64,000 bases of DNA from an uncultured Pseudomonadota bacterium (GTDB taxonomy: Bacteria > Vulcanimicrobiota > Vulcanimicrobiia > Eremiobacterales > Eremiobacteraceae), in assembly GCA_963781145.1 (NCBI GenBank), contig CAWADW010000005.1, positions 504,423-568,422 on the forward strand, read 5' to 3'. The position numbers and the translations under genes were made by a program. The notes under the pieces were generated by a model that had not been told where the DNA came from, did not search any database, and saw only the letters and a list, made by a program, of their open reading frames with translations. Below, in pieces: positions 31,442 through 56,311 of the stretch. Within the stretch, counting starts at the first letter, position 1. The number at the start of each line of letters is the position of its first letter.

Positions 31442-31585
31442 CAAACCCATGCCGACTGTCACCGATCGCAAACCCCACCGAGTGGACCCTCTGGCGCCGT
31501 CATCGCCGGCGGTCAGTCCGTTCACTTCGGCAATGCGATCTCGTGGCTGCTCGCGTTCCTGCTCTTCATCGCCGGCGTCTGGCTC

Positions 31586-32459
31586 TTGGCGTCAACGGGA
31601 TCGATTATTTATGCCATTGTTGGGATCATTTTGGCCTTGCTTTCGCTCGCGTCGATTCAAGTCGCCAAAGCGTGGGAGAAGGCAATCGTGCTGCGGCTCG
31701 GTCGATTCCATCGCCTCGCCGGCCCAGGCATCTTCTTCATCATTCCGGCGTTCGACGCCGTTGCGTCGTGGATCGATCAACGCGTGCAGACGAGCACCTT
31801 CGTCGCCGAGCAAACGCTGACCAAAGATACCGTTCCGGTGGACGTCGACGCCGTGCTTTTCTGGGTCGTTTGGGACGCCAAGAAAGCCGCCTTGGAAGTG
31901 GCATCGTATCGCGATGCAATCGGTTGGGCCTCCCAAACAGCGCTGCGCGACATTATCGGCACCACGTTTCTCGCCGACTTGCTCTCCAATCGCCAGGCAA
32001 TTGACAGCAACCTTCAACAAGCAATCGATGGCCGCACGACTCCATGGGGCATAACGGTACAGTCGGTTGAGATTCGCGACATCAAGATTCCTGAGAACTT
32101 GCAAGACGCGATGTCGCGCCAGGCCCAGGCGGAGCGCGAGCGCCAGGCTCGCGTCGATTTTGGGCGATGCCGAGCGGCAAATCGCGGAATCCTTCCTCGA
32201 GGCCGCGAAGTCATACGCCGGGAATCCAGTCGCGCTTCATCTGCGCGCCATGAACATGCTCTACGAAGGACTCAAGGAAAGAGGAGCGATGATCATCGTG
32301 CCGAGTACGGCGGTCGAAACAATGGGGCTAGGCACGATCACTGGATTAGCTTCGCTGGGGACGGCGCAAGGCATCGCTTCACCCCTGTCCGGCGCGAGCG
32401 CCCCAGGCGGGGCTGACGCCGGCGCAGCTAACACCTCATCCACTACTGGAGGGTCGTAA
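31586..32459 (+). pseudogene. SPFH/band-7 (stomatin-like) protein, disrupted by a +1 frameshift near 32156
   Basis: The N-terminal frame gives ...KAIVLRLGRFHRLAGPGIFFIIP...QAQAERERQARV. The C-terminus continues in frame 32067..32459 (ILGDAERQIAESFLEAAKSYAGNPVALHLRAMNMLYEGLKE...). There is one extra G after ...CGCGTC. Confidence 0.75.
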
Positions 32460-33173
32460 ATGTTTCTTGTTGCAGTCGTTGTTGCGCCGCTGTGAGCGCT
32501 GCAGGGTCTTCCGGAGGCCGGGTACTCCGCCCGATGGCACGTACAATTATTCGATCACGCAAGCCGGCGCCCGATCGGAACGAGCACAGTCACGATCAAG
32601 AGAAGTCCTGACAATATCTCGCTCCACGAAACCGAGACGCTCGGACAGTTGAGCTACGTCGTAGACGAAACACTCGATACAAATACGCTGAATCCAAAAA
32701 CATACGTCGCAACCTATACCAAGGGGACCGGATCGCAAACCGCGCGCGTTGCGTTTGACCGACACGGGTGCGACCGTCACTTTTGATGGCGTTGCAGGCA
32801 ACGAATTTTTCGCTTTCCCGGCAGGCAACAAGAATGCGTACGTCCTCGAGTCGTCAATCATGACGGGTTTTCTCATGCTCCCAGCCCAGCTCCACGCGAG
32901 CAGGGCGAACCAATTCCTCCAAGTCATGCCGAGTGAGGTTGCCCGCCTCACCGGCCGCGTGAGCGGGCAACCGCTGGCCCGCGACCGGCTGGCCTGCCCT
33001 CAAATGACGTGTCCCTCTCGATCGGCGGGCGAGTCAGTTTCGACGAATGGTACGATCCCAATACGTACGTCTTGCACGCGGTTTCCGTGCCCATCGAAGA
33101 CGTGCTCATCCAAGCTAACAAAATAGCCCATCGGGGTCAAGGGTATGGCCGCTACATTGGTTCTGCAGGTTGA
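32460..33173 (+). pseudogene. degraded secreted-protein gene (signal peptide + beta-rich domain) with at least 4 frameshifts; lower GC
   Basis: GGAGGG-N6-ATG start encoding MFLVAVVVAPL followed by a stop. Protein-like segments then alternate between three frames (PIGTSTVTIKRSPDNISLHETETLGQLSYVVDE..., TDTGATVTFDGVAGNEFFAFPAGNKNAYVLESS..., VSLSIGGRVSFDEWYDPNTYVLHAVSVPIEDVLIQANKIAHRGQGYGRYIGSAG*). Confidence 0.35.
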
Positions 33174-33204
33174 CGCGTTAGCACTCTCGATGCTATAGTG
33201 CTAA
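33170..33204 (+). promoter_or_regulatory. heat-shock promoter: TTGACG-N18-TATAGT overlapped by a CIRCE inverted repeat TTAGCACTC-N9-TAGTGCTAA
   Basis: Matches the CIRCE consensus TTAGCACTC-N9-GAGTGCTAA at 17/18 positions. The -10 element lies inside the element, 175 bp upstream of htrA. Confidence 0.7.
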
Positions 33205-33378
33205 GGTAGCATGGATTTCGGTTCCCGACCGCATCTCGGGACATAGGGGCGGCCAGGCCAGCCCCGGCAACAATTCCGTCTATCGATCAGGTAGAAATTT
33301 TAGGCGGTCGTTCTCGCCATGGCCCTCGTGCGGGACTTCCGCGCCTTTAAGCAAGTTCATAGGAGTAGAGTAAACAAG

Positions 33379-34587: not shown

Positions 34588-34599
34588 GACGATCCCGCC

Positions 34600-34628
34600 A
34601 AGGGGCGATTTTCCAATCGCCCCCTACA
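34600..34628. repeat. REP-like element, family A, copy 2 (between htrA and dnaK)
   Basis: AAGGGGCGATTTTCCAATCGCCCCCTACA. Confidence 0.65.
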
Positions 34629-34724
34629 AACAGGTGGCCCGGGGGTCCCGGCCACTGCCAATAGAAGCACATCAGGCCGGGATACACGATATGCCCGGCC
34701 TGGTCATCAGAGGAGTAAACAAAA

Positions 34725-36588
34725 ATGGCTAAAGTTGTCGGCATTGACCTCGGGACGACCAATTCGGTTGTCGCCTACATGGAAGGCGCGACGCCAACGG
34801 TCATCACGAACGCAGAGGGAAGCCGGCTCACCCCATCCGTTGTTGCGTTCACGAAGAGCGGCGAGCGGCTCGTTGGCCAACTCGCGAAGCGGCAAGCGAT
34901 CACCAATCCCGATCGCACGATTTCGTCGATCAAGCGCTATATGGGGACCGACCACAAGGTGACAATCGACGGCAAAGCCTACACGCCGCAAGAAATTTCT
35001 GCGATGATTCTCCAGAAGCTCGCCGCAGATGCGAGTACCTACCTTGGTGAAAAAGTCACACGAGCCGTGATCACGGTGCCCGCGTACTTCAATGATGCGC
35101 AGCGCCAAGCCACGAAGGATGCCGGCCGCATCGCAGGCCTCGACGTCCTGCGCATCATCAACGAGCCGACGGCTGCCGCGCTCGCGTACGGCCTGGACAA
35201 AAAGGGCAATGAAACGATTTTGGTCTGGGATCTCGGCGGCGGAACCTTCGACGTTTCCATCCTGGAAGTTGGCGACGGTGTTTTCGAAGTTAAATCCACC
35301 AACGGCGACACGCATCTCGGTGGTGACGACTATGACAAGCGCATCGTCGATTGGCTCGTGACCGAATTCAAGAAAGATCAAGCTATCGATCTTGCCAACG
35401 ATCGCCAAGCGTTGCAGCGCCTTACCGAAGCCGCTGAGAAAGCAAAAATCGAACTCTCGTCTATGGTGCAGACCTCCATCAATTTGCCCTTCATCACGGC
35501 AGATCAGAATGGACCGAAGCATCTGGACTATACGCTGACGCGCGCTAAATTCGAACAATTGACGGCGGATCTCACGGAGCGCTGCATCAAACCTTTCGAA
35601 AACGCGATTCGCGATGCCAAACTGTCAGTCGAGGACATAAAAGAGGTCGTCTTGGTCGGCGGTGCAACGCGCATGCCCGTGGTTGTGGAACTGGTCAAGC
35701 GCCTCACCAAGAAAGATCCAAACCAAAGCGTCAATCCCGACGAAGTGGTGGCGGTGGGTGCTGCCATTCAGGCCGGCGTACTCGCAGGCGAAGTCAAAGA
35801 CGTTGTCCTGCTCGACGTTACGCCGCTCACGCTCGGACTTGAGACCCTCGGCGGCGTTCGCACGCCGCTCATCGAGCGCAATACGACGATCCCAACGCGC
35901 AAGTCGCAGACCTTTACCACGGCGGATGACGGTCAAACCTCGGTCGATATCCACGTGCTCCAGGGCGAGCGCGACATGGCGGCCGACAATAAGACGCTCG
36001 GGTCGGTTCAGACTCGAGGGCATTCCCCCGGCACCGCGCGGCGTACCGCAAGTCGAAGTGACGTTCGATATCGACGCGAACGGCATCACGCACGTTGCCG
36101 CGAAAGATCTCGGAACCGGCAAAGAGCAGCGCATCACCATCACGGCATCAAGCAACCTCAACAAAGATGAGGTCGATCGCATGGTCAAAGACGCGCAATC
36201 CCATGCTGATGAGGACAAGCGCAAGCGTGCTGAAGCAGAGATCCGCAACCAGGCGCAAACCCTCGAGTATTCGGTCGAAAGGACGCTCAAAGATCTCGGC
36301 GACAAAGTGCCGGCGTCTGACAAAGCTGACGTCGAGAAAGCGCTCGATAACGTCCGCGCGCTGCTCAAGAGCGGCAGCTCGGACGAACTCAAGCGTGCTG
36401 CCGATCGCCTGCAAGAACTCTCGTATAAGCTCGCGCAAAACGTCTATCAAAGCACGGGGCAGTCGGCCGGTGACGGGCAGCCCAATGGCGCTGCCGGCGA
36501 GCCGCAAGGAGCGCCGAGCGGCGCGACCAGCTCCGGTGGCTCGGGTCCGCAAGGCGATGTCATCGACGCTGAGTATAAAGAAACATAA
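34725..36588 (+). pseudogene. dnaK: molecular chaperone DnaK, interrupted by a single-base insertion near 36003 (probably a sequence error)
   Basis: Full DnaK N-terminus ([17 protein letters not shown]...) runs to ...ADNKTLG. The C-terminus ([28 protein letters not shown]...EYKET*) is in the +1 frame. An extra T follows CTCGGG. Confidence 0.9.
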
Positions 36589-39336: not shown

Positions 39337-41620
39337 TTGGCAATCGCACATACTCTTGGATTTCCCCGCATAGGCCACAAGCGAGAGCTCAAGCGCGCTC
39401 TCGAATCTTATTGGAAAGGCGACATCGGCGCAGACGATCTCAAAGCGGTGGGGCGCCAGCTCCGTAGCCGCCATTGGCAGCTGCAGCGTGATGCCGGCTT
39501 GGACAACGTTGCTGTCGGTGATTTTTCGTTTTACGACCAGATGCTCGACACGAGCGCCATGGTCGGCGCGATCCCCGCGCGTTACGGTTTCTCCGGCGAA
39601 ACCGTCGATTTCGATACATATTTTGCGATGGCACGTGGCTCAGCCGCATCGCCTGCCATGGAAATGACCAAATGGTTCGATACGAACTACCACTATATCG
39701 TTCCCGAGTTTACCCCAGAGATGTCCTTCGCGCTCCGCAGCGCAAAGATGATCGCCCAAACGCGCGAGGCGATCGACGCCGGCTTTGTCCCCAAGCCCGT
39801 GCTCATCGGTCCAGTTACCTATCTGTGGCTTGGCAAAGAGCGCGCGACAAATGGCAAGCCATTCTCGCGCTTGTCGCTTCTCGAGCGCCTGCTCCCCGTG
39901 TACCAAGAAGTGCTGCGGCAGTTGAAAGGCCTTGGCGTTCGCTTGGTTCAGATGGACGAGCCTGCGCTGGTCGCGGACTTGCCCGCTCCCTGGCAACAAG
40001 CGTATCAGAGCGCGTACGAGGTGCTTGGTGCAGCTTCGGTAGACATCTTGCTCGCCACGTACTTCGGTGCCGTTGACGAGCACATCACTTTACTTGGGTC
40101 GCTGCCGGTGGCGGGCATCCATCTGGATCTCGTGCGTTCACCCGAACAACTCGATGCTGTGCTCGGAAGCTGGCGGCCGGGCAGGTCCCTCTCGCTCGGC
40201 GTTGTTGATGGACGCAATGTCTGGCGCACCGATCTTCGGCGCGCGCTCACGCTGCTCGAACGCGCACACGACGTTGTCGACGATGTTTGGGTTGGACCGT
40301 CCTGCAGCCTTATGCACGCCCCGGTCGATCTTACCCTCGAGTCGAAACTCGATGTCGAACTGCGTTCTTGGCTTGCCTTCGCTGTGCAAAAGCTGCACGA
40401 GCTCGCGATCCTCAAACGCGGCGTCGAGCACGGCAGCGAAGCGATCGAAGACGAGCTGCAACTATCGGATATCGTGCAACGCAGCCGCGAACAATCCAAA
40501 CTTATTCACAACAAAGCTGTCGCCGAGCGGGTCGCGCATCTGACCCAAGACGACGAGCGGCGACGCGAGCGATTTTCGGACTCGGCAGCGGCGGCAGCGC
40601 GAACAGCTCAACCTGCCTGCTTTTCCCACGACCACTATCGGAAGCTTCCCACAGACGCCGGCAATTCGCGAAGCGCGAGCCAAGTTCAAGAAAACCGAAC
40701 TTGACGAGAAAGCCTACGAGAAGGCGATGCAAGCGGAGATCGAGCACGCGATTCGCGAGCAGGAAAAACTTGGCATTGACGTCCTCGTTCACGGCGAAGC
40801 TGAACGCAACGACATGGTAGAGTACTTCGGAGAGCAGCTGTCAGGCTTTGCCTTCACGCAACACGGCTGGGTGCAAAGCTATGGTTCGCGCTATGTCAAG
40901 CCGCCGATCATCTACGGGGATGTCGAACGACCGACGCCGATGACCGTTCGCTGGATCGAGTACGCCCAATCCCTGACCGACAAGCCGATGAAGGGGATGC
41001 TCACTGGACCTGTGACTATTTTGCAGTGGTCTTTTGTGCGCGACGATCAGCCCCGTTCGGAAACCGCCACGCAAATCGCTCTGGCCATCCGGGACGAGGT
41101 TCGCGATCTCGAGCACGCCGGCATCCGCATCATTCAAATCGACGAGCCCGCGTTTCGTGAAGGCTTGCCGCTCAAACGCAAAGACTGGAAATCGTACATC
41201 GAATGGGCATCGCGCGTGTTTCGGATTGCCTCCTCGCCGGTGGACGACGCTACTCAGATCCACACCCATATGTGCTACTCGGAGTTTAACGATGTCTTCG
41301 AGGTTTTGGCACTGCTTGACGCCGACGTCATTACGATCGAATCGTCGCGCAGCGGCATGGAGTTGCTCGACGCATTCAAGAAGTTTCGTTATCCAAACGA
41401 AATTGGTCCAGGCGTATACGACATCCACTCGCCGCGCATCCCGAGCTCCGAAGAAATGCACGCTCTCTTAGAGAAGGCCGCAAACTTCCTTTCGCCCGAT
41501 CAACTCTGGGTCAATCCGGATTGTGGTTTGAAGACGCGGCGCTGGGAAGAGGTTTTGCCTGCCTTGCGCAACATGGTCGCCGCGGCGAAGCGCATGCGCG
41601 GAAAAGTTGCGGCGGTTTAA
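39337..41620 (+). pseudogene. metE: cobalamin-independent methionine synthase MetE, frameshifted near 40600 (probably a sequence error)
   Basis: The N-terminal Meth_synt_1 domain runs to ...DSAAAAAR. The C-terminal domain ([19 protein letters not shown]...[13 protein letters not shown]...) is in another frame (ORF 40727..41620). The lesion is one extra base, or 2 missing, within a GCGCG run. Confidence 0.9.
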
Positions 41621-42156
41621 GGTCGCGGGCGGGGCTCCTCGAAGAGCATTCTCGCCTGAAACGTAAAACCGGGCAAGGCCGGATCTCGAATTTCGTCGCC
41701 GCGGGCAAACGTTTGCCCGCCGTTTTTCCGCCGCGCAGTCACCGTTTGCAAATCTGTGTCGACGAGAAACACGACGGTCGTTCCAGCAGCCAGATAGGCG
41801 CGGACCTTCTCCTCAATGTCTTTAACCGCGTCCCCAGATGATAGGATTTCGACGACCACATCGGGCGCAACGCGAGGAATGTCGGCGTCTGTCGCATTCT
41901 CATACGGTATTCGCCCGTAGGAAAGGTATGCAACGTCCGGGACGAGCGGACGGCGCGCTTGGCCCGGTGGTTGGATGCGAAATTCCCACTCGGTGCCGAC
42001 TCGACCCGAACCTTGTCGGTTCGCCCAGTCGAGAAGCCTGCTGACAAAAACGCTTTGCGCCAGCGCGTGCTTGCGCTGCGGACTCACCTTTTGCAGTGCG
42101 CGTCCGTTGACCCATTCTGTCGCGGGCTTGGTTTCCGGCAAAACGATCTCAAACAT
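41617..42156 (-). CDS. Uma2 family endonuclease (DUF820, restriction-endonuclease-like fold)
   Basis: About 180 aa with conserved acidic/Lys residues (..PDVAY.., ..DVVVEILS..). Confidence 0.7.
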
Positions 42157-42201
42157 GGCACTCAGATTATATCACGCGAATGCGCTTGGCGGCTAGCAGG
42201 T

Positions 42202-42226
42202 CACGCGCGAATAAAATTCGCGCGTG
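42202..42226. repeat. REP-like element, family B variant (CACGCGCGAATAAAATTCGCGCGTG)
   Basis: Palindrome related to CGCGCGAAT-TTA-TTCGCGCG, abutting two family-A copies. Confidence 0.55.
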
Positions 42227-42252
42227 GGGCGATTTTCCAATCGCCCCCTACA
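42224..42252. repeat. REP-like element, family A, copy 3
   Basis: GTGGGGCGATTTTCCAATCGCCCCCTACA. Confidence 0.7.
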
Positions 42253-42257
42253 TGATC

Positions 42258-42286
42258 GTGGGGCGATTTTCCAATCGCCCCCTACA
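42258..42286. repeat. REP-like element, family A, copy 4 (its CTAC/GTAG tetramer supplies the acs TAG stop codon)
   Basis: Identical to copy 3 and directly repeated 34 bp downstream. Overlaps the acs stop at 42282-42284. Confidence 0.7.
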
Positions 42287-44237: not shown

Positions 44238-44250
44238 GCGCCGCGCTTAT

Positions 44251-45711
44251 CTACTGAGGGGTGGTTCCCTGCGTCTGCGGTGCGGGGCTGCTCGAGCCTG
44301 TTGCGCCAGCCGTGTTGCCTGTGCCAGTGGTGGTCGGCGGCACCGTGCCATCGTGCACCGTGGCGGCTGCAATCCGGTCCGCAATGTACGACATTGCTCG
44401 CTGCAGCTGCGTATCGGTTTCTGGTCTACCAAAATCCGCAGGTTTCACATCGTCGACCGCAATGTCCGGCGCGATGCCAACAGAGTTGATATCGCGGCCG
44501 CTTGGCGTGAGATACCGAGCTGTGGTGATCTTAATGGCGCTACCGTCCGGCAACGGATAGATGGTCTGCACGACCCCTTTGCCAAACGTTCGCGTTCCGA
44601 TGAGCACGCCAGCCCCTGAGTCTTGAATCGCGCCTGACGTAATCTCAGAAGCGCTGGCTGTGTATTCATTGACGAGCACCGCAAGCGGGAGTTGGGGAGC
44701 TGCGATGTTCTCCGCATCGTAGGTAGTCAAGGGTTTCGTGCGCGCATCGATGGACACGATCGGCCCTTCCGGGATGAAGAGCGAAGACACATCGATGGCC
44801 GCGTTGAGGTAACCACCACCGTTGTTGCGCAGATCCAAGATCACGCCTTTGACGCCTTGCTTGTCCAGCTTCTCAATCGCGCTGGCGAGCTCTTGGCCGG
44901 TCGTGAGACCGAAGACGAGCACCTGAACATACCCGATGTCGTTATCGATAACCCGCTCGCGCACGCTTGGCGCATGAATGGTTTCGCGAGTGATCATGAA
45001 GGTCATCGGCTTGGGTTCGTCTTTGCGCTGCACGGTCAGTTGCACCGTCGTGCCTGCTTTGCCGCGAATCAGCGAACTGTCTTGTTCGATGGAGAGGCCC
45101 GCGGTCGACTTGGCATCGACGTTGAGAATCACATCGCCTGCCTGAAGTCCGGCCTTGTCCGCCGGGCCGCCGTCGATCGTTTGCACGACGAGGAGCGATT
45201 TCGAAATCGGATCAACATCGAGCACGATCCCGACGCCAGCGAAGTTTCCGCCGTCCAAGCCTTCATTGAGGCTGCGAAAATCCTTGGGTGACATGAAGAC
45301 GGTCCACCGATCGTGGAGCGAGTCCATCATGCCGGCGATAGCTGCGTAGGCGAGGTTGCGGTTGCCCAAGGTCGAGCCAAACTTTTGGTCGGCAAGGGCG
45401 AGCGTGTTGTTCAGCACGGCAATGTCTGACTCGTCGCTGCCCGAACCGTGCGCGGTCGGGATTTTGTTCGGATCGCCGCCGTGGCTCTTGATGTAGTCGC
45501 GCAAGCCCGTGATGGCGCCGCTGAGGAGCGTTTGATCGGTGGTCGACTTGTAAAACTCAGAAATTGCTTGCTCGAAGGAGTAGTCCAGCATGGACCGCCC
45601 GACTTCATCGGACGACGCACGCGAGGGACTCGCGAACACACCGAAGGTCAGGCTGAATGCGAACGCCGCAGCGACGAGCCTTGCGGCGATTCTACGAATG
45701 GGTTGGGTCAT
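44251..45711 (-). CDS. S41 family C-terminal processing peptidase (CtpA-like), paralog 1
   Basis: PDZ domain (GGPADKAGLQAGDVIL) and S41 catalytic core (TASASEITSGAIQD...GKGVVQT). Pro/Thr/Gly-rich C-terminal tail. Confidence 0.85.
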   Translation of the reverse strand: MTQPIRRIAARLVAAAFAFSLTFGVFASPSRASSDEVGRSMLDYSFEQAISEFYKSTTDQTLLSGAITGLRDYIKSHGGDPNKIPTAHGSGSDESDIAVLNNTLALADQKFGSTLGNRNLAYAAIAGMMDSLHDRWTVFMSPKDFRSLNEGLDGGNFAGVGIVLDVDPISKSLLVVQTIDGGPADKAGLQAGDVILNVDAKSTAGLSIEQDSSLIRGKAGTTVQLTVQRKDEPKPMTFMITRETIHAPSVRERVIDNDIGYVQVLVFGLTTGQELASAIEKLDKQGVKGVILDLRNNGGGYLNAAIDVSSLFIPEGPIVSIDARTKPLTTYDAENIAAPQLPLAVLVNEYTASASEITSGAIQDSGAGVLIGTRTFGKGVVQTIYPLPDGSAIKITTARYLTPSGRDINSVGIAPDIAVDDVKPADFGRPETDTQLQRAMSYIADRIAAATVHDGTVPPTTTGTGNTAGATGSSSPAPQTQGTTPQ

Positions 45712-45747
45712 GCTGTTCCTCTCTTTTTATGGGGCGAGTTTTCTACG

Positions 45748-47178
45748 TTAGACGCTGGGATTTGTGAGGGCGATCTGGCGCTTCAGGTAGCGCAGGGCTG
45801 CTTGCAGCTGAGTATCTTTGCCAGTGACGCCGACGTCTCTGTAGTCCATCGGCACTACGATGTTAGGCTCGATGCCCTTTTTATTGATGTCGCGGCCGTC
45901 CGGCGTCACGTACCGCTGGGTCGTGACTTTGATTGCGCTGCCCCCCGGCAAGTCATAGATCGTCTGCACGACTCCCTTGCCAAAGGTCTTGACACCCACG
46001 AGAATCCCAATCTTTGAATCCTGGATCGCGCCGGCAGTGATCTCAGAAGCGCTGGCCGAGTATTGATTCACGAGAACGACCAGCGGGTGTGGCGGAATCG
46101 CATCTTGGTTGGCGTCATCCGTTTCCACATGCCCGTCGCGGTCGATCCGCGAAACAATTGGTCCATCCGCGATGAATTTCGACGAGATGTCCACCGCGGC
46201 ATCAAGTAGTCCTCCGCCGTTGTCGCGCAGATCCAAGACAAAGGCTTTGGCGCCTTGCTTCAGTAGCCGATCGAGCGCGTCGGTCACTTCTTGCGCCGAG
46301 TGTTCACCGAAATCGTAGAGTTGAATGTATCCGACGTTCCCGTCAATCATGTGTGACGTCATGGACGGCACTTCGATCACTTCGCGCTCGATCGCATAGT
46401 CGCGAACGTCATTCTTGCCGCGGAGAATCGTCATGTGCACCGTTGATCCCGCTTTGCCACGGATCAGGTTCATCACGAGATCGAGGTCGATGCCCTTTGT
46501 TGCTTTGCCGTCGACCGACACGATCACGTCGCCCCGCTTTAACCCTGCGCGAGCAGCCGGGGTGCCGTCAATGGGTTGGATGACGTTGACTTCGTGCGTC
46601 TTTGGATCTTTGCCGATGTACACGCCAATGCCGCCGAAATCGCCCCCTTGAATGAATTCCGAGAGTGACGTCTTGTCGCGCGGGCTCAAGAACACCGTGT
46701 ACGGATCGCGCAGCGAATCGAGCGCGCCCTCGATCGCAACGTACGTCAAATCTTGGGAGCCGGCTTGCTTGCCATAGTTGTGCAACGCCGTGGAGAGCAG
46801 GGTGTTGGCGTCTGCGTCAACTTGAGCCCCAGATGCCGAGGCGGTGATTGCCGGCAGGCTCAAGGTTCCGTTGATGTGCTTGGTCTTGAGGAACTCGAGC
46901 AAGCCTTTTCGCTCGCCACTGAGGAGCTGCGATTCATCAATGGGCTTGTAGTACACGTCGCGGACCTTATCCAGCGACATGTCGAGCATATCGAGGTCTT
47001 TTTGCTCGTCATTTCCTGCGCCCTCGCTGCCGTCAAAAGCTATGTTGCCGAGATCCCAGGCCAAAACTGCGCGCCGTTCACCCAACCGCTCGCGCAGCGG
47101 CGCGGCGTGCTGAAGCGCAAGGGTGGCTACGACCAGCGCGGCCGCAAGGGTGAAGAGAAGGAGGGCTTTACGAACCAC
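45748..47178 (-). CDS. S41 family C-terminal processing peptidase, paralog 2
   Basis: Same architecture (GTPAARAGLKRGDVIVSVDG; SASASEITAGAIQDSKIGILVGVKTFGKGVVQTI). Confidence 0.85.
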   Translation of the reverse strand: MVRKALLLFTLAAALVVATLALQHAAPLRERLGERRAVLAWDLGNIAFDGSEGAGNDEQKDLDMLDMSLDKVRDVYYKPIDESQLLSGERKGLLEFLKTKHINGTLSLPAITASASGAQVDADANTLLSTALHNYGKQAGSQDLTYVAIEGALDSLRDPYTVFLSPRDKTSLSEFIQGGDFGGIGVYIGKDPKTHEVNVIQPIDGTPAARAGLKRGDVIVSVDGKATKGIDLDLVMNLIRGKAGSTVHMTILRGKNDVRDYAIEREVIEVPSMTSHMIDGNVGYIQLYDFGEHSAQEVTDALDRLLKQGAKAFVLDLRDNGGGLLDAAVDISSKFIADGPIVSRIDRDGHVETDDANQDAIPPHPLVVLVNQYSASASEITAGAIQDSKIGILVGVKTFGKGVVQTIYDLPGGSAIKVTTQRYVTPDGRDINKKGIEPNIVVPMDYRDVGVTGKDTQLQAALRYLKRQIALTNPSV

Positions 47179-47282
47179 GGGCGGGACAGTTTCCTTTCAA
47201 TTCTGCTATTTATTTCTTCGGCGGCTGGGGTCATCATGCCCGCAATCCGCCTCCCTATCATAACGAATCGGCAGCCCGCTTG

Positions 47283-48569
47283 TTACAAGCGAGTGAGGGG
47301 GTTCACCGGTACGCCGTTCACCCGAATTTCAAAATGTAAGTGTGGTCCCGTAGCGTAGCCCGTGGCCCCGACGGCCCCGATAACCTGGCCCCGCTGAATA
47401 TGCTGATTGACCGATACGTACATTGCCGAGCAGTGAGCATAAAGCGTCGATAGTCCCGATCCGTGGTCTAGAATGATGGCATTGCCGTATCCGCCGTACC
47501 AACTTGCGTACAGGACGACGCCGTCGGCGGCTGCTTGAATCGGCGTGCCATAGTCGGCACCGATATCGATGCCCGAATGGAGCGCGTAGCGCCCGGTAAT
47601 TGGATCCACCCGCATGCCGAAAGGCGAGGTGATCGGACCTCGCACAGGCCACGCAAAGACGACCGGACCGAATTCCGAACAGACGGGCGGAGCCAGACCC
47701 GCCGCCATCGCAGCCATCCGACGAGCTTGGCAAGCCTCGTATCGGGCGCGCAGCGTGACCGCCTCGTCCTCGCGCTGTTTTTCTTGGATCAACGCCTGGA
47801 GCCGGGCCTCCTCCGCAGCGCTCAACCCTTCAAGCTCGTACACCTGTTGGGCGATGATCGAGCGCTGACTTGACGCAATAGCAAGCAAGGAGCGTCGCTG
47901 GTCGGCGAGTTGGCCAAGCTCCTGCTTGCGTGCAAGCTCGTCTTCTTGCTCTCGCACCAACGCTGCTTGCGTGCTCTCCAAGCCGAGCACGATCGTTTCG
48001 TAACGCGCTTGCTCGGAGTTCACCGTCGCGATGAGCCGCGAGTCGGAACGCAAAATAGCGCGGATGAAATCCCAGCGTTCGATAAAGTCGACGAATGAGG
48101 TCGCACTCAAAAGCACGTCGAGGTACGATGTTGCGCTCCCGTATTCATACACGTCAACAATCCGGTGATTGAGCGCATCGCGATGGCGGTCGAGACTGGC
48201 TTGCGCGGCTGCAAGTTGGCGTTTGCGAATAGCCAAGCGCAGTTGCGTCTGTGTAATGGCGCTGCCAAGCGCACCCAAATCGCCGCGCACCCGAATAATG
48301 CTGTACTGCACGGATTCGAGTTGTTGCGAGATCGTCTGCTCTTTGAAGCGCGCGACGTGGAGTTTGAGACGGCTCTCGTGCAGCTTACGCTGCGTTGCCT
48401 CGAGCAGCGCTTTCTTTTCTTGAATCTTTTCGCTGATCGGCACCGGGGTCGCGGCCAGCGCGACCGGTGCGAATGCGCTTGCAAATGGCTGGACACTAAG
48501 GATGACAACCGCGAGGACAACAAGACGTAGTCGCGCGAATTTATTCGCGCGTGCGCGCTGGATGTTCAA
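47283..48569 (-). CDS. M23 family metallopeptidase with N-terminal coiled coil (EnvC-like murein hydrolase activator)
   Basis: Signal peptide, long coiled-coil region and a C-terminal LytM/M23 domain (HSGIDIGADYGTPI...GPHLHFE). TTG start overlaps the ftsX stop. Confidence 0.8.
   Translation of the reverse strand: MNIQRARANKFARLRLVVLAVVILSVQPFASAFAPVALAATPVPISEKIQEKKALLEATQRKLHESRLKLHVARFKEQTISQQLESVQYSIIRVRGDLGALGSAITQTQLRLAIRKRQLAAAQASLDRHRDALNHRIVDVYEYGSATSYLDVLLSATSFVDFIERWDFIRAILRSDSRLIATVNSEQARYETIVLGLESTQAALVREQEDELARKQELGQLADQRRSLLAIASSQRSIIAQQVYELEGLSAAEEARLQALIQEKQREDEAVTLRARYEACQARRMAAMAAGLAPPVCSEFGPVVFAWPVRGPITSPFGMRVDPITGRYALHSGIDIGADYGTPIQAAADGVVLYASWYGGYGNAIILDHGSGLSTLYAHCSAMYVSVNQHIQRGQVIGAVGATGYATGPHLHFEIRVNGVPVNPLTRL
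48526..48550. repeat. REP-like element, family B (GTAGTCGCGCGAATTTATTCGCGCG), located inside the N-terminal coding region of the M23 gene
   Basis: Exact family-B sequence. It encodes RARANKFARL of the signal-peptide n-region. Confidence 0.6.
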
Positions 48570-49453
48570 GCGGTCTTCAGGTATCGTCCGATAGAGAGCA
48601 TGCTCGAAAGCATCCCAACAAGGACGCCGACCAAAACCAGTTCGAGCGCGAGGTGCGGCAGCGGTACGCTTGCCGGATTGAACGGAATAAACGGCAGATT
48701 GAGAATGAATTTGGGAGCCAGCGAGCGATAGCCCGCGTCCAAGACCAGCAATCCGATGGTTGCCCCGAAGAGTCCTGAGAGAATGCCTTCGAACACGAAC
48801 GGCCAGCGCACAGCCCAGCCGGTTGCGCCGACCAGTTGCATAATGCCAATCTCGCGCTGCCGCGCGAACACCGTGAGGCGAATCGTATTGTACATGATCA
48901 GCGCCGTAGCCAAGAGCAGCAGTGCCACGACGCCAAGCCCTGCCGCGCTAAAGAGCGCCTCGGCTCGGAGCAGCTTCTGGGTCACGCTGCTGCCGTAGTT
49001 AATATTGGCCACCCCAGGTTTGTGGCCCATTTCCCCGGCAAGCGGGGGAACGTCCGTCGGCGCATACGTGTGGACGACAATGGTGTTTGGCAACGGATTA
49101 GTATTGAGAAGTCCCAAATTAAATTGGCCGCGCAGCGACTGACGCAGATTGATCATGGCGCGCTTCTTGCTCACATAGCGAACTGTGTCCACCCGCGGGT
49201 CTGCTTGCAGCGACCGGATGAGCGCATCGACGTCCGGACCCTTCGCGTCATCCCGAAGATAGATCGCGATTGCGACTTGACCGACGATGTTCTTCATCAC
49301 GATGTCGAACGACGTTCGCAGGAACAAGAAAACGCCAAGCAAGATGATGGAGATAGCGATCGTGCCGATGGCGGTGAGTGCCATCGTGATGTTCCGCGTG
49401 AAGTTTTGGGCCACCTCAGCCCAAAAAAAACGAACCTTACCCCAGTCCAACAT
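48566..49453 (-). CDS. ftsX: cell division permease FtsX
   Basis: FtsX topology (TM1, large periplasmic loop, three C-terminal transmembrane helices) and the conserved C-terminus. Internal start MLDWGKVRFF chosen to limit overlap with ftsE. Confidence 0.85.
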   Translation of the reverse strand: MLDWGKVRFFWAEVAQNFTRNITMALTAIGTIAISIILLGVFLFLRTSFDIVMKNIVGQVAIAIYLRDDAKGPDVDALIRSLQADPRVDTVRYVSKKRAMINLRQSLRGQFNLGLLNTNPLPNTIVVHTYAPTDVPPLAGEMGHKPGVANINYGSSVTQKLLRAEALFSAAGLGVVALLLLATALIMYNTIRLTVFARQREIGIMQLVGATGWAVRWPFVFEGILSGLFGATIGLLVLDAGYRSLAPKFILNLPFIPFNPASVPLPHLALELVLVGVLVGMLSSMLSIGRYLKTA

Positions 49454-50127
49454 GATAACGTCCGCGCTCTTCGTCGCGCGCGATGCGGCCATTGACCAAG
49501 CGCACGACCCGGCGCCGCATGCGGTCGACGATGGCTTGATTGTGGGTGGCGACGATCGTCGTCGTGCCCTTGGCGTTGATGCGCGAGAGCAGCGCCATGA
49601 TTTCGCTCGAGGTCTCGGGGTCGAGGTTGCCGGTGGGTTCGTCGCACAAGAGAATGAGGGGATTGTTGACGAGCGAGCGCGCGATGGCTACGCGCTGCTG
49701 CTCTCCGCCGGAGAGCTCTTGGGGAAACATCTTGGCTTTGTGCGCGATGCCGACGAGCTCCAGCATGCGAGGAACGCGCCGCAGCACTTCGCGAGAGCTC
49801 GCCCCCGTCACTTGCAAAGCGTAAGCAACATTTTCCCACACCGTCTTTTGATAAAGCAGTTTGAAATCTTGAAAGACGACGCCAACCTTGCGCCGCAAGA
49901 ACGGAACGTCCCCGGGGCGCAGCGTCGTGAGACTCTGACCATCGACCTCGACGGTCGCCTTCGGTGGGCCGCACCTCGCGGATAATGCACGAAAGCAGGC
50001 TCGACTTACCCTGCCCCGTGCTGCCGACCAGGAACATGAACTCGCCGCGGGCGACCGTGAGCGAAATCTCGGTCAGCGCGTGAACGCCGTTCGGGTAGAC
50101 GAGGCTGACGTCTCGAAAAACGATCAT
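49437..50127 (-). pseudogene. ftsE: cell division ATP-binding protein FtsE, frameshifted near 49955 (probably a sequence error)
   Basis: N-terminus MIVFRDVSLVYPNGVHALTEISLTV..GSTGQGKSSLL (Walker A) in ORF 49297..50127, up to ...RPTEG. The remainder (ATVEVDGQSLTT...[15 protein letters not shown]...[11 protein letters not shown]) is in frame 49437..49898. Confidence 0.85.
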
Positions 50128-50245
50128 GCCGCGCCTTGTATGCCCACAGCGTGAGAAATGGCCATCTGTAACGATTTATTCGCCGCCTGGGGACGCGGCC
50201 CTCGCGGAGTGGGGAACCAGCGCTTGGAATGGCAAAAGGGTTGCT

Positions 50246-51397
50246 ATGGACTTCGACCTCTCGACCGAACAGCAAGACGTCGCGAATCTATGTCGCGAAT
50301 TCGCCGAGGGCGAAATCGCGCCCCACGCCCAAGAATGGGATGCAAAAGCAGAATTTCCGCTTGCCACCGTGCGCAAGATGGGTGAGCTCGGATTTTTGGG
50401 TTTGCCCTTTCCTGAGAAATATGGCGGAGCCGGATGCGGACACCGTTTCGTACGCACTAGCCGTCATGGAAATCGGAAAAGCCGACGCTTCTGTGGGCAT
50501 CACTATGGCAGCGCATGTGTCGCTTGGATCACAGCCCTTCTTTGCATTTGGCAGCGAGGCGCAAAAACAAAAATATCTCGTGCCGCTGGCGCGAGGAGAA
50601 CGCTTGTGGGCATTCGGACTTACCGAAGCACAGGCCGGTTCTGACGCGGGTGCGACGCAGACGACGGCTCAAGTGCACGATGGACGCTGGACGATCAACG
50701 GATCAAAGTGTTTCATCACCAATGCGGGTACGCCGATGACCGGAGGCGTGACGATCACCGCCGTGACGGGGCGCGGTAACGGCCGTTCGGAAATCAGCAA
50801 CATCATCGTCCCTCAAGACATCCCTGGGTACACGCAGGCGGCTCCGTATAAGAAGATGGGTTGGCGCGCATCGGATACGCGCGAACTGTCACTTCGACAA
50901 CGCAGAGGTGCCGGAGGAAAACCTGCTTAGGCGAGCGCGGACGAGGCCTTAAGCAGTTTCTCGAGATTCTCGACGGTGGACGGATCAGCGTCGGTGCACT
51001 TTCCGTGGGTCTCGCGCAAGCCTGTTATGAGGCTGCTGCGAAGTACGCGAAAGAGCGCCATCAATTCGGCCAACCCATTGCGAAGTTCCAGGCCGTGCAG
51101 TTTCAACTCGTCGACATGGCGGTGGAAATCGAACTCGCGCGCTCTGCCGTGCTCAAAGCAGCGTGGCTCAAAGACCAAGGGCGTGATTTCGCCACCGCGG
51201 CGGCAATGGCGAAGCTTTTTTCGGGCGAGGTCTCTCGGCGCTGCGCGAATGCCGCGGTGCAGATTCACGGCGGTTACGGGTTTATGGACGAGTATCCCGT
51301 GTCGCGTTACTGGCGCGACTGCAAGATCAACGAGATCGGCGAGGGCACAAACGAAGTGCAGCGCATGGTGATCGCGCGCCAACTCGGTCTGTCGTGA
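50246..51397 (+). pseudogene. acyl-CoA dehydrogenase interrupted by three +1 indels (about 50432, 50893, 50930)
   Basis: MDFDLSTEQQDV...EKYGGAG | ADTVSYALAVMEIGK...DTRELS | FDNAEVPEENLL | GERGRGLKQF...EGTNEVQRMVIARQLGLS*. The protein continues through three frames. Confidence 0.8.
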
Positions 51398-51398
51398 T

Positions 51399-51423: not shown

Positions 51424-51446
51424 TTCATTCTACTCCGATTTAGCGG

Positions 51447-52527
51447 CTAGTGGGTCGTGTCGACTGCAATCCCGAACCCGGCGAGACCCACGCTCGAATC
51501 GCCTATCTCCCGATGATTGAGTATCGACGTCACGGGGCCGCTTGCAACCTCAGGTCCGGGGATGACGTGGATGACCGATCCGTCGTAGACGAAGAGCAGA
51601 TCGCGGACCGAATCGTAGGCCATTCCTGACGGGCCGCTCGAAAAGCCGTTGATAACTTGGCCGTGAGCGTTGGGGCCGCTCGCGGTACTCGGCTTATGGA
51701 CGACGTCGATTTGCCCGACAATGTTGCCTCCCACCTTCACGATTCTCAGCCACGAATAATTTGTCGTTCGCAGCGCTGTACGCCATGCCTTGGGGGAAGA
51801 ACAGGGCGCTCACCTCGCGGCTTGCTGCTATGGTGGGGTTCGTCATGGAAGTAACAGCTGTTTGGGCCGCCGCACCGAAATTGTCAAACGAAGCAACGAC
51901 CGCACCGAAATCGCTGACAAACAGCCGGTCGTTCACCGGATCATAGATCATTTCGACTGCGCGCGGCGTGCCGGCGATGCTCGAATCGGTGATCGTTAGG
52001 GTGATGTTCGCCGCTGGCACCGAACTGCCGGTCATCGAGTGCGCATTTGCAAACACTTGGATCGTCGAGCCATTAACGTTGGAAACATAGAGGAGATCGT
52101 GGTTGACATCGTATGCGGCCGTCCCTTGACCGTTCATGTAGGGGACGAGCGAGTTCGGGTTCATGCCGCCCTCCGCCCCGGGGTTGTTCCAAACCCTAAT
52201 CGGGGTGGAAAAGTTCCCGCCGCCTCCCATTGTAGGATAGGCGGTGGGATACCACAGCACGTTGTAAAGCGGCGAGAAGACGACATCCGGGTTGCTGAGG
52301 TCGCTCGTTGGCAGAACCACCGCAGCCGCGATGAATCCGTTGGCGGTGGAAGCATGCGTGTACACGCGTATCTGCTGCACGGTTTGAACGTAGAGCGTGT
52401 CCGGACCGGTTCCGGTTGGGGTCGGCGTGGGAGATGGGGACGTGCTTGCAGTGCTATGGCAACCGTAGCCACCTGAGGCGACAATGATGCACGCCAGAGT
52501 AAAGCAGATTCCCAGTTTGGGATTCAT
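51447..52527 (-). pseudogene. secreted repeat (beta-propeller-like) lipoprotein, one frameshift near 51720
   Basis: Signal/lipobox-like N-terminus MNPKLGICFTLAC, Thr/Pro linker, then repeated ...LYV/LFV..D.. motifs. The C-terminal part continues in ORF 51447..51740. Confidence 0.5.
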
Positions 52528-52711: not shown

Positions 52712-55700
52712 TTACAGTTTTGTGGACAAACTGAACACGTACGTGCGTACCGGAATCGCTCCACCACCAGCTAGTGCAGCAGAGGCGCCGACGTACGGGA
52801 AGTAGTCATCGCCGTAGTAGGCGTTCGCTGGGTTAGCCGATTTCGCAGCGAAAGCGCCCATCCCAAGCGGCGACAATGCGTAGAACGGATTGTCTGCGTA
52901 GGAGATGATACCCTGACTCGCCGGCTGCTCCCAAGCATAGCCTTGATTGTGAACACCCCAGAGGAGGTTCGTTCCTAGGATCGATGCTTTCAGGTTGTGG
53001 CCGATGTCGTGAGAGATGCCCAAGTTGAGCGCCCACCACGACGGCCCTTTGAAGGCGCCTGGGGCATCGAATTGGCTTGTGTATGGATCTGGCCCCAGCG
53101 CACCCGGCAATGGGGCTGTGCAAGGACTGATCGTGCCGTGCTCGCAGGTAGCGGGCAACGGAGTGCAGCCGGGTGCATTGCCCCCAACCCCGGGCGGGCC
53201 AGCAGCAAAGCAGTGCGCGTCTGAGAAGAGTTGCGGGTCTCCGTACGGGTTGCCGGATTGATAGTTCAACGTCGGTAGAATATCAAATCCATGCTCCCGC
53301 ACATCGAGCCCCACGTTGAGTCACGAATCGCACATCGTACGACGGCGATGCTGGCACCGCCTGATCGTAAGATGGCGAGTAGTACGCGTTCGGATCGAGC
53401 GTCGCGAAGTGTGTGCCGTAGTAGTTGTTGTAGGCGGAGATCTGGCTATTAATTGTGTCGATGTACGATGCTCCGCTCGGACCCTTCCAGAACCTGATCT
53501 TGGAATTGGTGTAGGTCGCGGCTATCACGCCCCCAATGCCGTTCTCACTGGACACATTCTTGCTCAGTAAGAACTCGGCTCCCGAAACGCGCGCATTGCC
53601 GAAGTTGTATCCGGTAACGAAGCTCGGCGATGCGGGATTCACGGGCAAGTTAAGGATCTGGTTTTGCGTATCTCTATAGAACGGCGTGATCTTCATGGAC
53701 AAGCCAGCTGAAAAGTCGTGCTCGACCGATAAGTCGTAGTTCGTGCTGTTTTCGGGTTGCACGTTGTGAACCGTCAAGAACCCCAGGCCATCGTAGAATC
53801 GATTCAGCAGTTGAACCGTGTCGCCCGGTCCCCAGAACGGGGCTTCCCGGTACTCTACGAACGCAGAGTCCGGAGGCTGAACGTAGCGTCCAACTGAGAA
53901 CCGAAGGATGTTGGTTGGATCAAACGTGTACGTGAAGCCGAATCGTGGGCTTATCGCCTCATACGAGATGGAGGTCGGCGGATTGCTCCACCCCCCTGCT
54001 CCCGGTGCATCTTTTGCGCTCAAACCCACGCCGCCAGGATCAGTCCCCGGGGGACTGTTTGGCGTGCTCCCGTTGGTGAGGATCGAGAAGCAGTTCGTTC
54101 CCGCTGGATAGCCGGGGATACTCGGATCGCCTGGCGAGTATGCGAAACCATGCAGGCACTGCCCGTTTTGTTCTTCAGCCATGTATGCTAGACCGTTGAG
54201 ACCGGTGATCTGCATATCGGGCATCAGCACGAAACGGAACTCATCCCAACGCGCTCCGAAGTCGAACAACAGCTTGTCGCTGGGTTTGAACTGGTCGTCG
54301 ATGACACCATCGTAGGTTATAGGCGTCGTGCTCGACCAATATCCGAACGGCGAGCCTACGTAGGTGACGGGGCTGTCCCGCCGTGCATGCCATGCCCACA
54401 CCTCCGCAATTGGGGTGCGTTCCCCAAAAGTTGAATGCCGGCTGGTAATTGTAGCGCAGCGTCAAGTCGCGCGTCCAGTCGGTGTCGATCTTCAGAAGGT
54501 TCTGCGCGTTGAGCTGGTTTTGGTAGTTGAGCGTGACCCCTGTCGCGTTGTCGTGCAGTTGGTAGAATGTGAAACCGACCCAGCCGTTGATTGGCTGGTC
54601 GAGGCTCCAACCCGAAAACAAGTTGTACTCGTACAGGCGCAAGAACGAATTGTCGTTCAGAGCTCGAGTGTAGGACAGCTTTGTAATCGAGTACTGCGTA
54701 TTTTGGCTGTCTTGGAATGTTGGCGGGATCGGGCCGCCAAGGCTGCCACCGGACGTTGGCCAGGTGAGCGGCGTGAGCAGCGCTGGGTTGTATGGTTGCC
54801 CAGCGTTGCCTTTGTAGAACAGACCCGTCGGCCACGTGAGATTCGTCGCCGATTGAAACCGGTGTTGCTCGTGAAGGTCGACACGGTTGGGTCCGAATTG
54901 AATGTGCCTTCTGGGGCATACGGAGCCGACTGGGTCGAACCGACCACATACAGTGCTTGCAGGTCGTCGCTCAGACCATTGTGCTGGAGCGTCCAGTGCA
55001 GATTCGTCACGGTGTCGCGTTGTGCGGTCCACGGAATGTCCGAATACGCGGCCAATGACTGCGGCTGCATCAGGGAGTTGGCCACCGAGCAGTTGAGGAA
55101 ACCGCCGCCTGGCGTTAACCCTGGAATCGTAGAACCAAAGACGTCGTGAGAATTCCAGGCGCCGCAACCAGGATCGTTCGCCGGAACACTGATCGCGGTT
55201 CCCGCCAGGTTGCTCCGGTCGCCGAAGTTGTAGTCGGCGTTCAAAGCCAACGTCGAGACGTAGTAGGTAAACCGATTGTCCGGTGTGCCACCGTAGATGT
55301 CCGCTTGGACTGAGTGGTTGAAGAGCGGTGAGCCGACGATGCCCGTAAAGTCAGCACCGCCTGGATATTTTCCACGCGAAACGACTTCGTTGACATAGCC
55401 GGACATGGCGCGACCCGCATCTGCCGGAGCGCCGCCGGTGTAGACTTCCAAGCTCGAAAGGCCATTCGTCAAACCTGCTGTGGAATTGTAAAAGTCAAAT
55501 CCGCGGTTAAGCGGAATGCCTTCAAGTTCGAATCCGATTTGGTCGAACGAACCGCCGCGCATGGAGAGCGAACCCTGGCCTGCGTAGCCACCGCCCGATC
55601 CAACTTGCCGCACAACGCCCGGCATCGAGCCGACAACGCCGTTTTGGCTATACATCGTCTCTGAGCCGCCTTGCGAACCTTGCAAGTTGGCGATGGCGCG

Positions 55701-56123
55701 CGAGTTGACGGCATAGAGGTCGCCCGTCACCGTCTTACTCACGACGCTCGCAGTTGCAGTGGTCGTAACGTGGCCGATGGTCTTGATGGATTGCCGCATG
55801 TGGATATCTGCGGAGGCTGTTTGGTCAGCCGTAACTGTGATGCCGTAGATGGTTGCGGTGTCGTAACCGTCTTTGCTCCCAGTTATGCTGTAGGTGTCCG
55901 GAGAGAGGTTGAGGATCGAATAGAAACCATTCGACCCGGTCGTTGAACTTTGCGATTGGCTGGGTGACGAAGCCGTCACCTTAGTGCCAGTTAGTGGGTT
56001 GCCATTTTGATCCGTCACCTTGCCCTGAATGTTGCCAGTCGTGCCGGCCAGTGCCCATGTTCCCTGGACGAGCAAAACCGCGACCGTCAGAAGCGCGGTG
56101 CGGAGTAGGCCCTTAGTGGTCAT
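52712..56123 (-). pseudogene. TonB-dependent receptor with N-terminal carboxypeptidase-regulatory-like domain, split by at least 3 frameshifts
   Basis: Strong RBS AAGGAGG + ATG at 56123. Signal peptide, a CarboxypepD_reg-like segment (GNIQGKVTDQNGNPLTGTKVTA...GFYSILNLSPDTYSITGSKDGY), plug and beta-barrel segments spread over ORFs 54657..56198, 54241..55167, 53283..54401 and 52712..53314. Confidence 0.7.
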
Positions 56124-56311
56124 CAAGGGTTTCCTCCTTAAGTGAGTGAGAATGCTTAACCGACGAACCAGCCACTGCGGTCGGCCGAGCCGATGCACGC
56201 GCCGTCGTCCCGATTAAGGTGAGTTTAAGGTTCGAACGGTGACTTCGCACACCTGCTCGCAGCGCGTCTTGCGGGACGGATAAGGGCGACAGCGGACCTA
56301 AAGGTCCGCTG

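Follow-up and report, generated by a model that had tools for sequence, protein, structure and literature searches.

Strain-oblivious long-read assembly merges close strains that co-occur, and the resulting consensus departs from every single strain. In the Strainberry paper, Flye collapses strains of ~98.7% identity and indels are linked to frameshifted ORFs (PMC8302730). Two other systems give a comparable picture, namely the homopolymer errors of Nanopore, 454 and Ion Torrent sequencing, where single-base indels break ORFs in long-read-only assemblies, and the pseudogene clusters of decaying (e.g. host-restricted) genomes, where many frameshifted genes lie close by.

The 64-kb stretch of DNA analysed here, referred to as the window, resembles all three. 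Unlike homopolymer errors, its insertions extend no run, outnumber deletions ~4:1 and are clustered rather than genome-wide; unlike the pseudogenes of decaying genomes, its lesions are absent from conspecifics, strike essential genes, come without nonsense codons or larger deletions and lie in genes under purifying selection. It departs from the strain-oblivious consensus as described in that SNP alleles stand in tandem, with +1 insertions at synonymous third positions. Sequence comparison suggests that the frameshifts are not part of the organism's DNA but probably a consensus artefact that arose where a strain mixture had been collapsed, while the organism itself almost certainly has intact dnaK, metE, ftsE, rnj and sucD, as well as the rest of the affected genes.

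Frameshifts in two patches of the window

The coding indels (n=24) are listed in Table 1 together with the sites at which frameshifts had originally been predicted from the window sequence. Every gene-level prediction was recovered, for the most part within a few nucleotides of the position given or, where a minimum number of shifts had been given, with at least that number. In dnaK, the predicted extra T at 36003 is equivalent to a +1 at 35999, because removal of either base yields L-G-R-F. The expectation that nearly all events would be 1-nt insertions holds for 19 of the 24 coding indels, but not for the four deletions in the 222-aa gene.

The shifts had been assigned to a single block at 31500-56200, with 0-31 kb (including secA, ftsK and rnj) and 56-64 kb free of them. 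The clustering was borne out and the limits were not: the additional sites in rnj (30219), sucD (56350) and the intergenic region (58441) extend the block to 30.2-58.4 kb, in which the indels form two patches, at 30.2-40.6 and 49.9-58.4 kb. On the left flank, secA and ftsK are indeed intact in the window but the 5' end of rnj is shifted, so that the rnj ORF starts on the Lactamase_B profile at position 19, versus position 5 for the 574-aa protein of the sister contig S (see below). On the right flank, only 58.5-64 kb is clean. A three-way classification of the window, S and a further contig, T, left both 1-30.2 kb and 58.5-64 kb without any window-private indel. Under uniform placement, the probability that all 24 coding events fall within 28 of the 64 kb is, by our own arithmetic, p ~3e-9.

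Table 1. Indel sites and related features of the window, with the original predictions. Bases joined by a hyphen are adjacent in the window; S, T, Logan, L007 and L057 are the compared sequences described in the text.
Feature	Position	Strand	Observation	Originally predicted
rnj, +T	30219	-	~codon 23 of the 574-aa S gene; N-terminus truncated; S only	
SPFH/Band_7 gene	31449..32459	+	335 aa in S; +1 at 31465 (A), 31478 (C), 32156 (G); at 32156 window C-G, S has C, T has G	extra G at ~32156
222-aa hypothetical ("secreted") protein gene	32460..33126	+	5-6 indels; deletions near 32485 (?), 32518, 32568, 32966; insertions 32761, 33114	at least 4 shifts
Noisy intergenic stretch	33128..33164	.	~19 scattered extra bases over 40 nt vs S and T	
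dnaK, +1	35999..36003	+	window CT[C]GGGT vs S CTG GGT; C-G pair compatible with synonymous CTC/CTG doublet	extra T at 36003
metE, +1	40567	+	window C-G; S and Logan contig C; outgroup L007 G	~40600
Clean interval	40600..49900	.	9.4 kb, no window-private indel; 0-2 SNPs per 2 kb vs S and T; Uma2, acetyl-CoA synthetase, two S41 peptidases, M23 peptidase, FtsX	
ftsE, +1	49957	-	not in S, T, L007, L057; compatible with synonymous GGG/GGC third-position doublet	~49955
Acyl-CoA dehydrogenase (ACAD)	50246..51397	+	382 aa in S and T; +G at 50436, 50888, 50925	~50432, 50893, 50930
Lipoprotein gene (359-365 aa in T, L007)	51690..51739	-	+C 51690, base missing 51693-51695, +A 51739	~51720
TonB-dependent receptor	52712..56123	-	+1 at 53322, 54375, 54848, 54851; 4/4 are doublets, second allele in T and/or outgroup	at least 3 shifts
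sucD, +1	56350	-	12 nt before stop; window G-T; S and Logan T; T and L007 G	
Intergenic +C	58441	.	start of 27-nt hairpin repeat; not in S, T, Logan contig	

A Viterbi scan of codon usage detected same-strand frame switches at the indel sites, independently of any sister comparison. Repair by deletion of the listed insertions results in stop-free dnaK (622 aa), metE (765 aa), ACAD (387 aa) and TonB receptor (1165 aa) genes, and no nonsense codon remains in the repaired frames. No shift had been seen in a long homopolymer, and none of the insertions lies in a homopolymer at all, the sole dinucleotide run being at 31478 (C beside C); in the sequence contexts of the window-private insertions the inserted base is mostly unlike either neighbour. 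This context rules out homopolymer-length errors. A basecalling artefact at methylation motifs was also rejected, since the contexts have no common motif and confinement to patches is not expected from it. Among the insertion sites three 5-mers recur, CT[G]TC, TC[G]CC and CT[C]GG, each of them twice, which may be coincidence.

Related sequences and their own error patches

The main reference was the sister contig S (ena:ERZ25039506:contig_25187), which displays 99.3% identity to the window over 28112-49337. It was compared along with T, the two being long-read contigs of the window's own population (99.3-99.8% identical), and with Logan contigs, which are short contigs from other sequencing runs, the outgroup MAG L007 (89% identical) and the JGI contig L057 (91% identical). 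Judging from contig naming, ERZ25039506 and ERZ25039587 appear to be Microflora Danica (MFD) assemblies; names are likewise the only source for the platform on which the Logan runs were sequenced and for the assembler behind S and T. In a genome-contig scan, the profile of relatives comprised only the 89% relative MFD02248.bin.2.139 and Vulcanimicrobiota/Eremiobacterota MAGs, none of them identical. Exact-protein look-ups with window 58483-59712, ftsK, 23736-24848, GrpE and 19284-20504 gave no match, nor did a scan of JGI metagenomes with the dnaK site pattern, while the same scan with the ftsE site recovered one 91% relative (L057), without the insertions.

A check against a sister assembly had been suggested with the original prediction, and S and T both lack every window-private indel that they cover. 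The same is true of L007, L057 and the Logan contigs, and at the covered sites these sequences have full-length genes. Thus, dnaK (620 aa), metE (760 aa) and Band_7 are intact in S, ftsE (229 aa) and ACAD in both S and T, and the TonB receptor (1056 aa) in T. The Logan contigs have no insertion at 40567, 56350 or 58441, and L007 and L057 have none at 49957, 50436, 50888 or 50925. Coverage differs between sites: 30219-31478 is covered by S only, and the dnaK site only by S and by the error-prone divergent haplotype of T, the latter site being without Logan support because the Logan contig concerned begins at 36058, 55 nt short.

The sister contigs have error patches of their own. In S, secA is split into 177+170+240 aa, ftsK into 288+248 aa, and the mqn genes are broken, all of which are intact in the window; in T, the broken genes are LytR, S30AE, secA, metE, ACAD, dnaK and an epimerase. 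By the three-way classification, private indels are found at 30.2-58.4 kb only for the window, at 11.6-14.5 and 21.9-26.9 kb for S, and at 8-17.4, 32-41 and 60.5-64 kb for T. Over 14.6-25.4 kb, Logan contigs show 0 indels versus the window and 19-30 gaps versus S. All three contigs, although from one population, are thus mosaic in structure, each with its own private SNP and indel patches.

Strain polymorphism and allele doublets

SNPs between the window and S comprise 108 synonymous and 35 non-synonymous changes, and 104 of the 143 occupy third codon positions. They are mostly synonymous (3:1) and are therefore real variants and not noise. The indels lie close to them: their median distance to the nearest SNP is 30.5 nt, while that of random positions is 168 nt (p = 3e-6), and the per-kb counts of indels and SNPs are correlated (rho 0.49). 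Concomitantly, the indel-free interval at 40.6-49.9 kb coincides with near-identity of the contigs. Where the window departs from S within 31.8-40.1 kb, it does so almost always at lone sites, with the base that T's divergent haplotype has there. Real short recombination tracts were rejected as the origin of these T-like alleles, since each is confined to one site and has S-like alleles at most a few bases away on either side.

We also observed that many insertions can be read as allele doublets, in which the window has two bases in succession, the first found in some of the compared sequences and the second in others. This is the case at 32156, 40567, 53322, 54375, 54848, 54851 and 56350, i.e. 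at 7 of 16 testable sites (null 0.056, p = 1.3e-5). At the other nine testable sites, which include the four G insertions of ftsE and ACAD, the second allele was not seen among the fetched sequences, so that the doublet reading there rests on codon position only. In 14 of the 19 coding insertions the added base is itself a synonymous third-position alternative (null 0.36, p = 9e-4), the five that do not fit as a synonymous doublet being 31465, 31478, 32761, 50436 and 51690. When applied to the private insertions of S, the doublet test was weakly positive (16/30, p = 0.03), with one allele matched. Tandem-allele insertion at heterozygous sites is known polisher behaviour; in the collapsed-strain assembly literature examined, we found no description of both SNP alleles being written in tandem as +1 insertions.

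These observations are consistent with a process in which, where the contigs differ, the reads of two co-occurring haplotypes, or a draft and its reads, would have been combined into a single consensus. One allele would prevail at most polymorphic sites, resulting in an allele mosaic, while at some sites both alleles would be written in tandem, adding one base and shifting the frame. The deletions, the 33128-33164 stretch and the neighbours of the hairpin repeats make up a smaller share of the errors and may be ordinary unpolished long-read noise in these poorly resolved stretches.

As the cause, the original prediction had offered either a stretch of locally low quality or poor polishing, or a strain mixture that had been collapsed. 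Both belong to the kind of explanation that the data support, and we prefer the strain mixture because the indels adjoin real SNPs and many insertions are tandem SNP alleles. Plain residual long-read error, due to local low coverage or failed polishing and with no strain mixture, is unlikely as the whole explanation. It would account for the intergenic stretch at 33128-33164, whose density of extra bases looks like raw-read noise from unpolished reads, for the errors that adjoin the hairpin repeat at 30373 and 58441, and for the five coding insertions and all deletions that fall outside the doublet pattern. In agreement with this, the published pipeline of the related MFD MAGs consists of Flye and a single Medaka round on Nanopore-only data (PMC12313526). 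However, random hits would neither give a synonymous third-position base as often as observed nor reproduce the other lineage's allele at nearly half of the testable sites; moreover, the accompanying substitutions have the synonymous excess of real variants, and the interval without indels is exactly the one in which the contigs are nearly identical.

With the collapsed strain mixture as the preferred reading, the frameshifts would have no biological significance for the organism and would instead be a practical warning to anyone working with metagenomes assembled from long reads. Over patches of tens of kilobases, such contigs may give wrong gene calls, pseudogene counts and estimates of completeness, and the patches vary between assemblies of one population. 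They are recognisable by sequence alone, from +1 insertions at synonymous third positions, often as tandem alleles, beside clusters of synonymous SNPs.

Genuine lesions and recoding as improbable alternatives

That the affected genes are genuine pseudogenes, produced by genome decay or tolerated owing to a second intact copy elsewhere, is highly improbable. Nothing speaks for it directly, the nearest point being that the window has private, real-looking SNP alleles in the affected genes. Against it, the essential dnaK and ftsE as well as metE, rnj and sucD would all have been struck together, and once the insertions are removed there are neither nonsense codons nor larger deletions. The excess of synonymous over non-synonymous SNPs reported above indicates strong purifying selection on these genes, and none of the lesions recurs in an independent sequence. 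Lesions of this kind also occur in the sister assemblies, where they break secA and ftsK, likewise essential. Both flanks are syntenic with S, which identifies the region as the orthologous locus and not a spare copy. The original prediction had judged a real loss of dnaK, ftsE and metE implausible, and the independent sequences without these lesions support that judgement. It is just as hard to believe that the inserted bases are real and belong to a lineage with >20 frameshifts that is rescued by polyploidy or merodiploidy (a second intact copy) or by recoding.

Programmed recoding, in which the proteins would be restored by transcriptional slippage or by +1 ribosomal frameshifting, has nothing in its favour and is close to inconceivable. 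Programmed shifts are conserved, but the frames run on unbroken at the covered sites in the relatives of 99%, 91% and 89% identity; the sites show no common slippery motif and no homopolymers, and the >20 sites lie in unrelated genes of one block with none elsewhere.

Frame disruptions in the window

Scanning the window with a Viterbi model of codon usage detected frame switches within one strand, clear of stop codons, near 32145, 36010, 40597, 49953, 50423, 50915, 51741, 53319, 54426 and 54858. Upon translation, the conserved DnaK protein runs in one frame and then resumes in the next, and in the Pfam search the metE halves fall on separate, neighbouring ORFs. Alignment with S, a long-read contig of the same population (ena:ERZ25039506:contig_25187, 759 kb; loci L001, L002, L005, L044, L049, L052, L054; 99.33% identity across 28112-49337), located single extra bases in the window at 32156, 35999 and 40567 and an indel cluster at 32485-33351; the remaining loci have extra bases at 49957, 50436, 50888, 50925, 51690, 51739, 53322, 54375, 54848, 54851, 56350 and 58441. 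Insertions account for 19 of the 24 coding indels. No inserted base lengthens a homopolymer, as the original prediction had held in placing no insertion in a long homopolymer. Deletion of the listed inserted bases restored stop-free frames (Table). The frameshifts exist at the named loci, and every position first given is within a few bases of the one determined here.

The block had been placed at 31500-56200. Its core is confirmed but its boundaries are not: since rnj and sucD are also affected, the stretch spans 30.2-58.4 kb, with a clean interval at 40.6-49.9 kb. The stated absence of shifts from 56-64 kb does not hold, as sucD carries an insertion at 56350, 12 nt from its stop, and a further extra base lies at 58441. 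While secA (890 aa) and ftsK (739 aa) are intact as proposed, rnj is not; it loses its 5' end to an extra T at 30219, and its longest ORF enters the Lactamase_B profile only at position 19, versus position 5 for the contig S protein (574 aa).

Table. Allele doublets, private indel patches, repaired frames and hairpin elements (window coordinates).
Feature	Position	Observation
Allele doublet	56350	Window GC[GT]GG; base T in contig S and one Logan contig, G in contig T and Out
Allele doublet	54848/54851	Window TCGT C G CC G A TTG; TCGTCCCATTG in contig S, TCGTGCCGTTG in contig T and Out
Allele doublet	32156	Window C then G; C in contig S, G in contig T
Allele doublet	40567	Window C then G; C in contig S and one Logan contig, G in Out
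Allele doublet	53322	Window T then C; base T in contigs S and T, C in Out
Allele doublet	54375	Window G then T; base T in contigs S and T, G in Out
Indel patch private to the window	30.2-58.4 kb	
Indel patches private to contig S	11.6-14.5, 21.9-26.9 kb	
Indel patches private to contig T	8-17.4, 32-41, 60.5-64 kb	
dnaK frame		483 aa as assembled, 622 aa repaired
metE frame		460 aa as assembled, 765 aa repaired
ACAD frame		232 aa as assembled, 387 aa repaired
TonB receptor frame		518 aa as assembled, 1165 aa repaired
27-nt hairpin element	30375-30401, 34602-34628, 42226-42252, 42260-42286, 58441-58467	+ strand, n=5

Reciprocal lesions in sister assemblies

Contig S, a second long-read contig of the population, T (ena:ERZ25039587:contig_205731, 101 kb; L045, L050, L055), and short Logan contigs from runs ERR10755940, ERR12036785, ERR12036779 and SRR22500529 (L003, L004, L006, L046-L048, L051, L053, L056) were retrieved by exact-protein look-ups using intact window proteins. 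A genome-collection scan with a fragment of the acyl-CoA dehydrogenase gene (ACAD) yielded Out (L007, MAG MFD02248.bin.2.139, CAVTNB010000001.1; 89% identity across 40231-60836), and a pattern scan yielded L057 (JGI contig Ga0185299_10000035; 91% identity, 47075-51092). The closest named relatives of the ACAD query, sharing 82% and 77% of its amino acids, were MAGs of Vulcanimicrobiota/Eremiobacterota, the phylum to which the organism of the window probably belongs as well.

In contig S, dnaK (620 aa), metE (760 aa), the SPFH gene Band_7 (335 aa), ftsE (229 aa) and ACAD (382 aa) are single genes; ftsE, ACAD, the lipoprotein (359 aa) and the TonB receptor (1056 aa) are intact in contig T, and the frames of metE, ftsE, lipoprotein and TonB are continuous in Out. 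The extra bases at 40567, 56350 and 58441 are missing from Logan contigs, and those at 49957, 50436, 50888 and 50925 from Out and L057. These intact copies of dnaK, metE and ftsE (all three in contig S, ftsE in contig T, metE and ftsE in Out) bear out the view that their real loss is implausible. Conversely, in contig S secA is in pieces (177+170+240 aa), as are ftsK (288+248 aa) and the mqn (futalosine-pathway) genes, whose window counterparts are intact (361/282/370 aa); contig T, too, carries broken genes, at still different loci. From 14.6 to 25.4 kb, Logan contigs show 0 indels against the window versus 19-30 gap positions against contig S. A three-way classification of every indel gave each long-read contig its own private patches, and neither sister assembly has any of the window-private indels that it covers. 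This reciprocity is decisive: the frameshifts are assembly errors, because one population cannot have lost a different set of essential genes in each of its three assemblies.

An extra base at 54820-54822 splits the TonB receptor gene of contig S (444 + 703 aa), a few tens of bases from the window insertions at 54848 and 54851; one SNP-dense spot thus gave rise to errors in both assemblies.

Many insertions as tandem alleles

Many of the insertions are allele doublets, in which both alleles of a SNP stand in tandem (Table); we grade this the most telling evidence. The inserted base is the allele of another lineage at the exact position in 7/16 testable sites (simulated null 0.056, p = 1.3e-5). 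In a test free of comparators, 14/19 coding insertions are the synonymous alternative third-position base (null 0.36, p = 9e-4); five coding insertions and all deletions do not fit. At 9/16 testable sites, including four G insertions (ftsE and ACAD), the second allele was not found in S, T, Logan contigs, Out or L057. As the window carries private, mostly synonymous SNP alleles in the ftsE/ACAD patch, absent from S, T, Out and L057, the second haplotype there may simply be unsampled. The doublet test on private insertions of contig S was weakly positive (16/30, p = 0.03).

The indels also follow polymorphism, with a median distance to the nearest SNP of 30.5 nt versus 168 nt for random positions (p = 3e-6) and correlated SNP and indel counts per kb (rho = 0.49). 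Coding substitutions between the window and contig S are 108 synonymous to 35 non-synonymous, with 104/143 at third codon positions; those private to contig S in its bad patches are 119 to 43, with 119/162 at third positions. Such an excess indicates real variants that passed through selection, not sequencing noise. The frameshift patches of contig S (L002, L044) carry about 160 mostly synonymous private SNPs.

From 31.8 to 40.1 kb, contig T represents a haplotype about 12% divergent from the window and contig S, and at nearly every site where the window differs from contig S the window has the contig T allele. These are isolated single sites with S-type alleles within a few bases, a sprinkled mosaic that led us to reject recombination tracts as their origin. 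Against the window, contig T reaches an identity of at least 99.5% across 41.6-60.5 kb but only about 88% across 31.6-41.5 and 61.7-64 kb, where differences fall on every third base. Since its identity changes at about 41.55 kb and 61.7 kb (L055, L050), it switches between two haplotypes or species; either the assembly path is chimeric or the genome is a true mosaic.

Origin of the errors and other sequence elements

We propose that reads of two co-occurring haplotypes were merged in the affected stretches or, with the same outcome, that a draft from one haplotype was polished with reads from another; the second allele would have been added at the consensus step and the first kept, giving a +1 insertion. 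For the related MAG catalogue, Nanopore-only data were processed with Flye and a single Medaka round (PMC12313526), and Flye collapses strains of ~98.7% identity into one consensus (PMC8302730); the errors here are of the kind known from strain-oblivious assembly of long-read metagenomes. Between a low-quality or mis-polished stretch and a collapsed strain mixture, the alternatives originally offered, the strain mixture is favoured by SNP linkage and the doublets. Residual long-read noise of the ordinary kind is probably a further contributor in these poorly resolved stretches; at 33128-33164, about 19 scattered extra bases in 40 nt resemble unpolished read sequence. Genuine pseudogenisation was rejected, the lesions not being common to relatives and showing neither relaxed selection nor nonsense mutations, as were programmed frameshifting (sites not conserved in relatives) and homopolymer error (wrong sequence context). 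The frameshift block is not a biological feature, and its value is only practical: tandem-allele insertions adjoining synonymous SNP clusters mark such patches from sequence alone.

Besides, an intergenic element of 27 nt, GGGGCGATTTTCCAATCGCCCCCTACA, consists of a perfect hairpin (9-bp stem, 4-nt loop) and a trailing CTACA, and all copies lie between two same-direction genes. Four of the five share an exact 13-mer, and the fifth is exact in contig S. The tandem pair at 42226-42286 is present in the window and contig T, with one copy in contig S; 3/5 copies are at or adjoin assembly indels. A 354-aa ORF (11022-12086, - strand) matches no Pfam family and is located where the G+C drops to 0.53-0.54, versus ~0.59 elsewhere, in a stretch scored non-coding by the codon model; the ORF is intact in the window and contig T and split in contig S. 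Finally, because a putative CIRCE-like inverted repeat identified by eye, TTAGCACTC-N9-TAGTGCTAA (33178-33204), lies upstream of the htrA-dnaK-grpE-dnaJ cluster, it suggests control of this cluster by HrcA.
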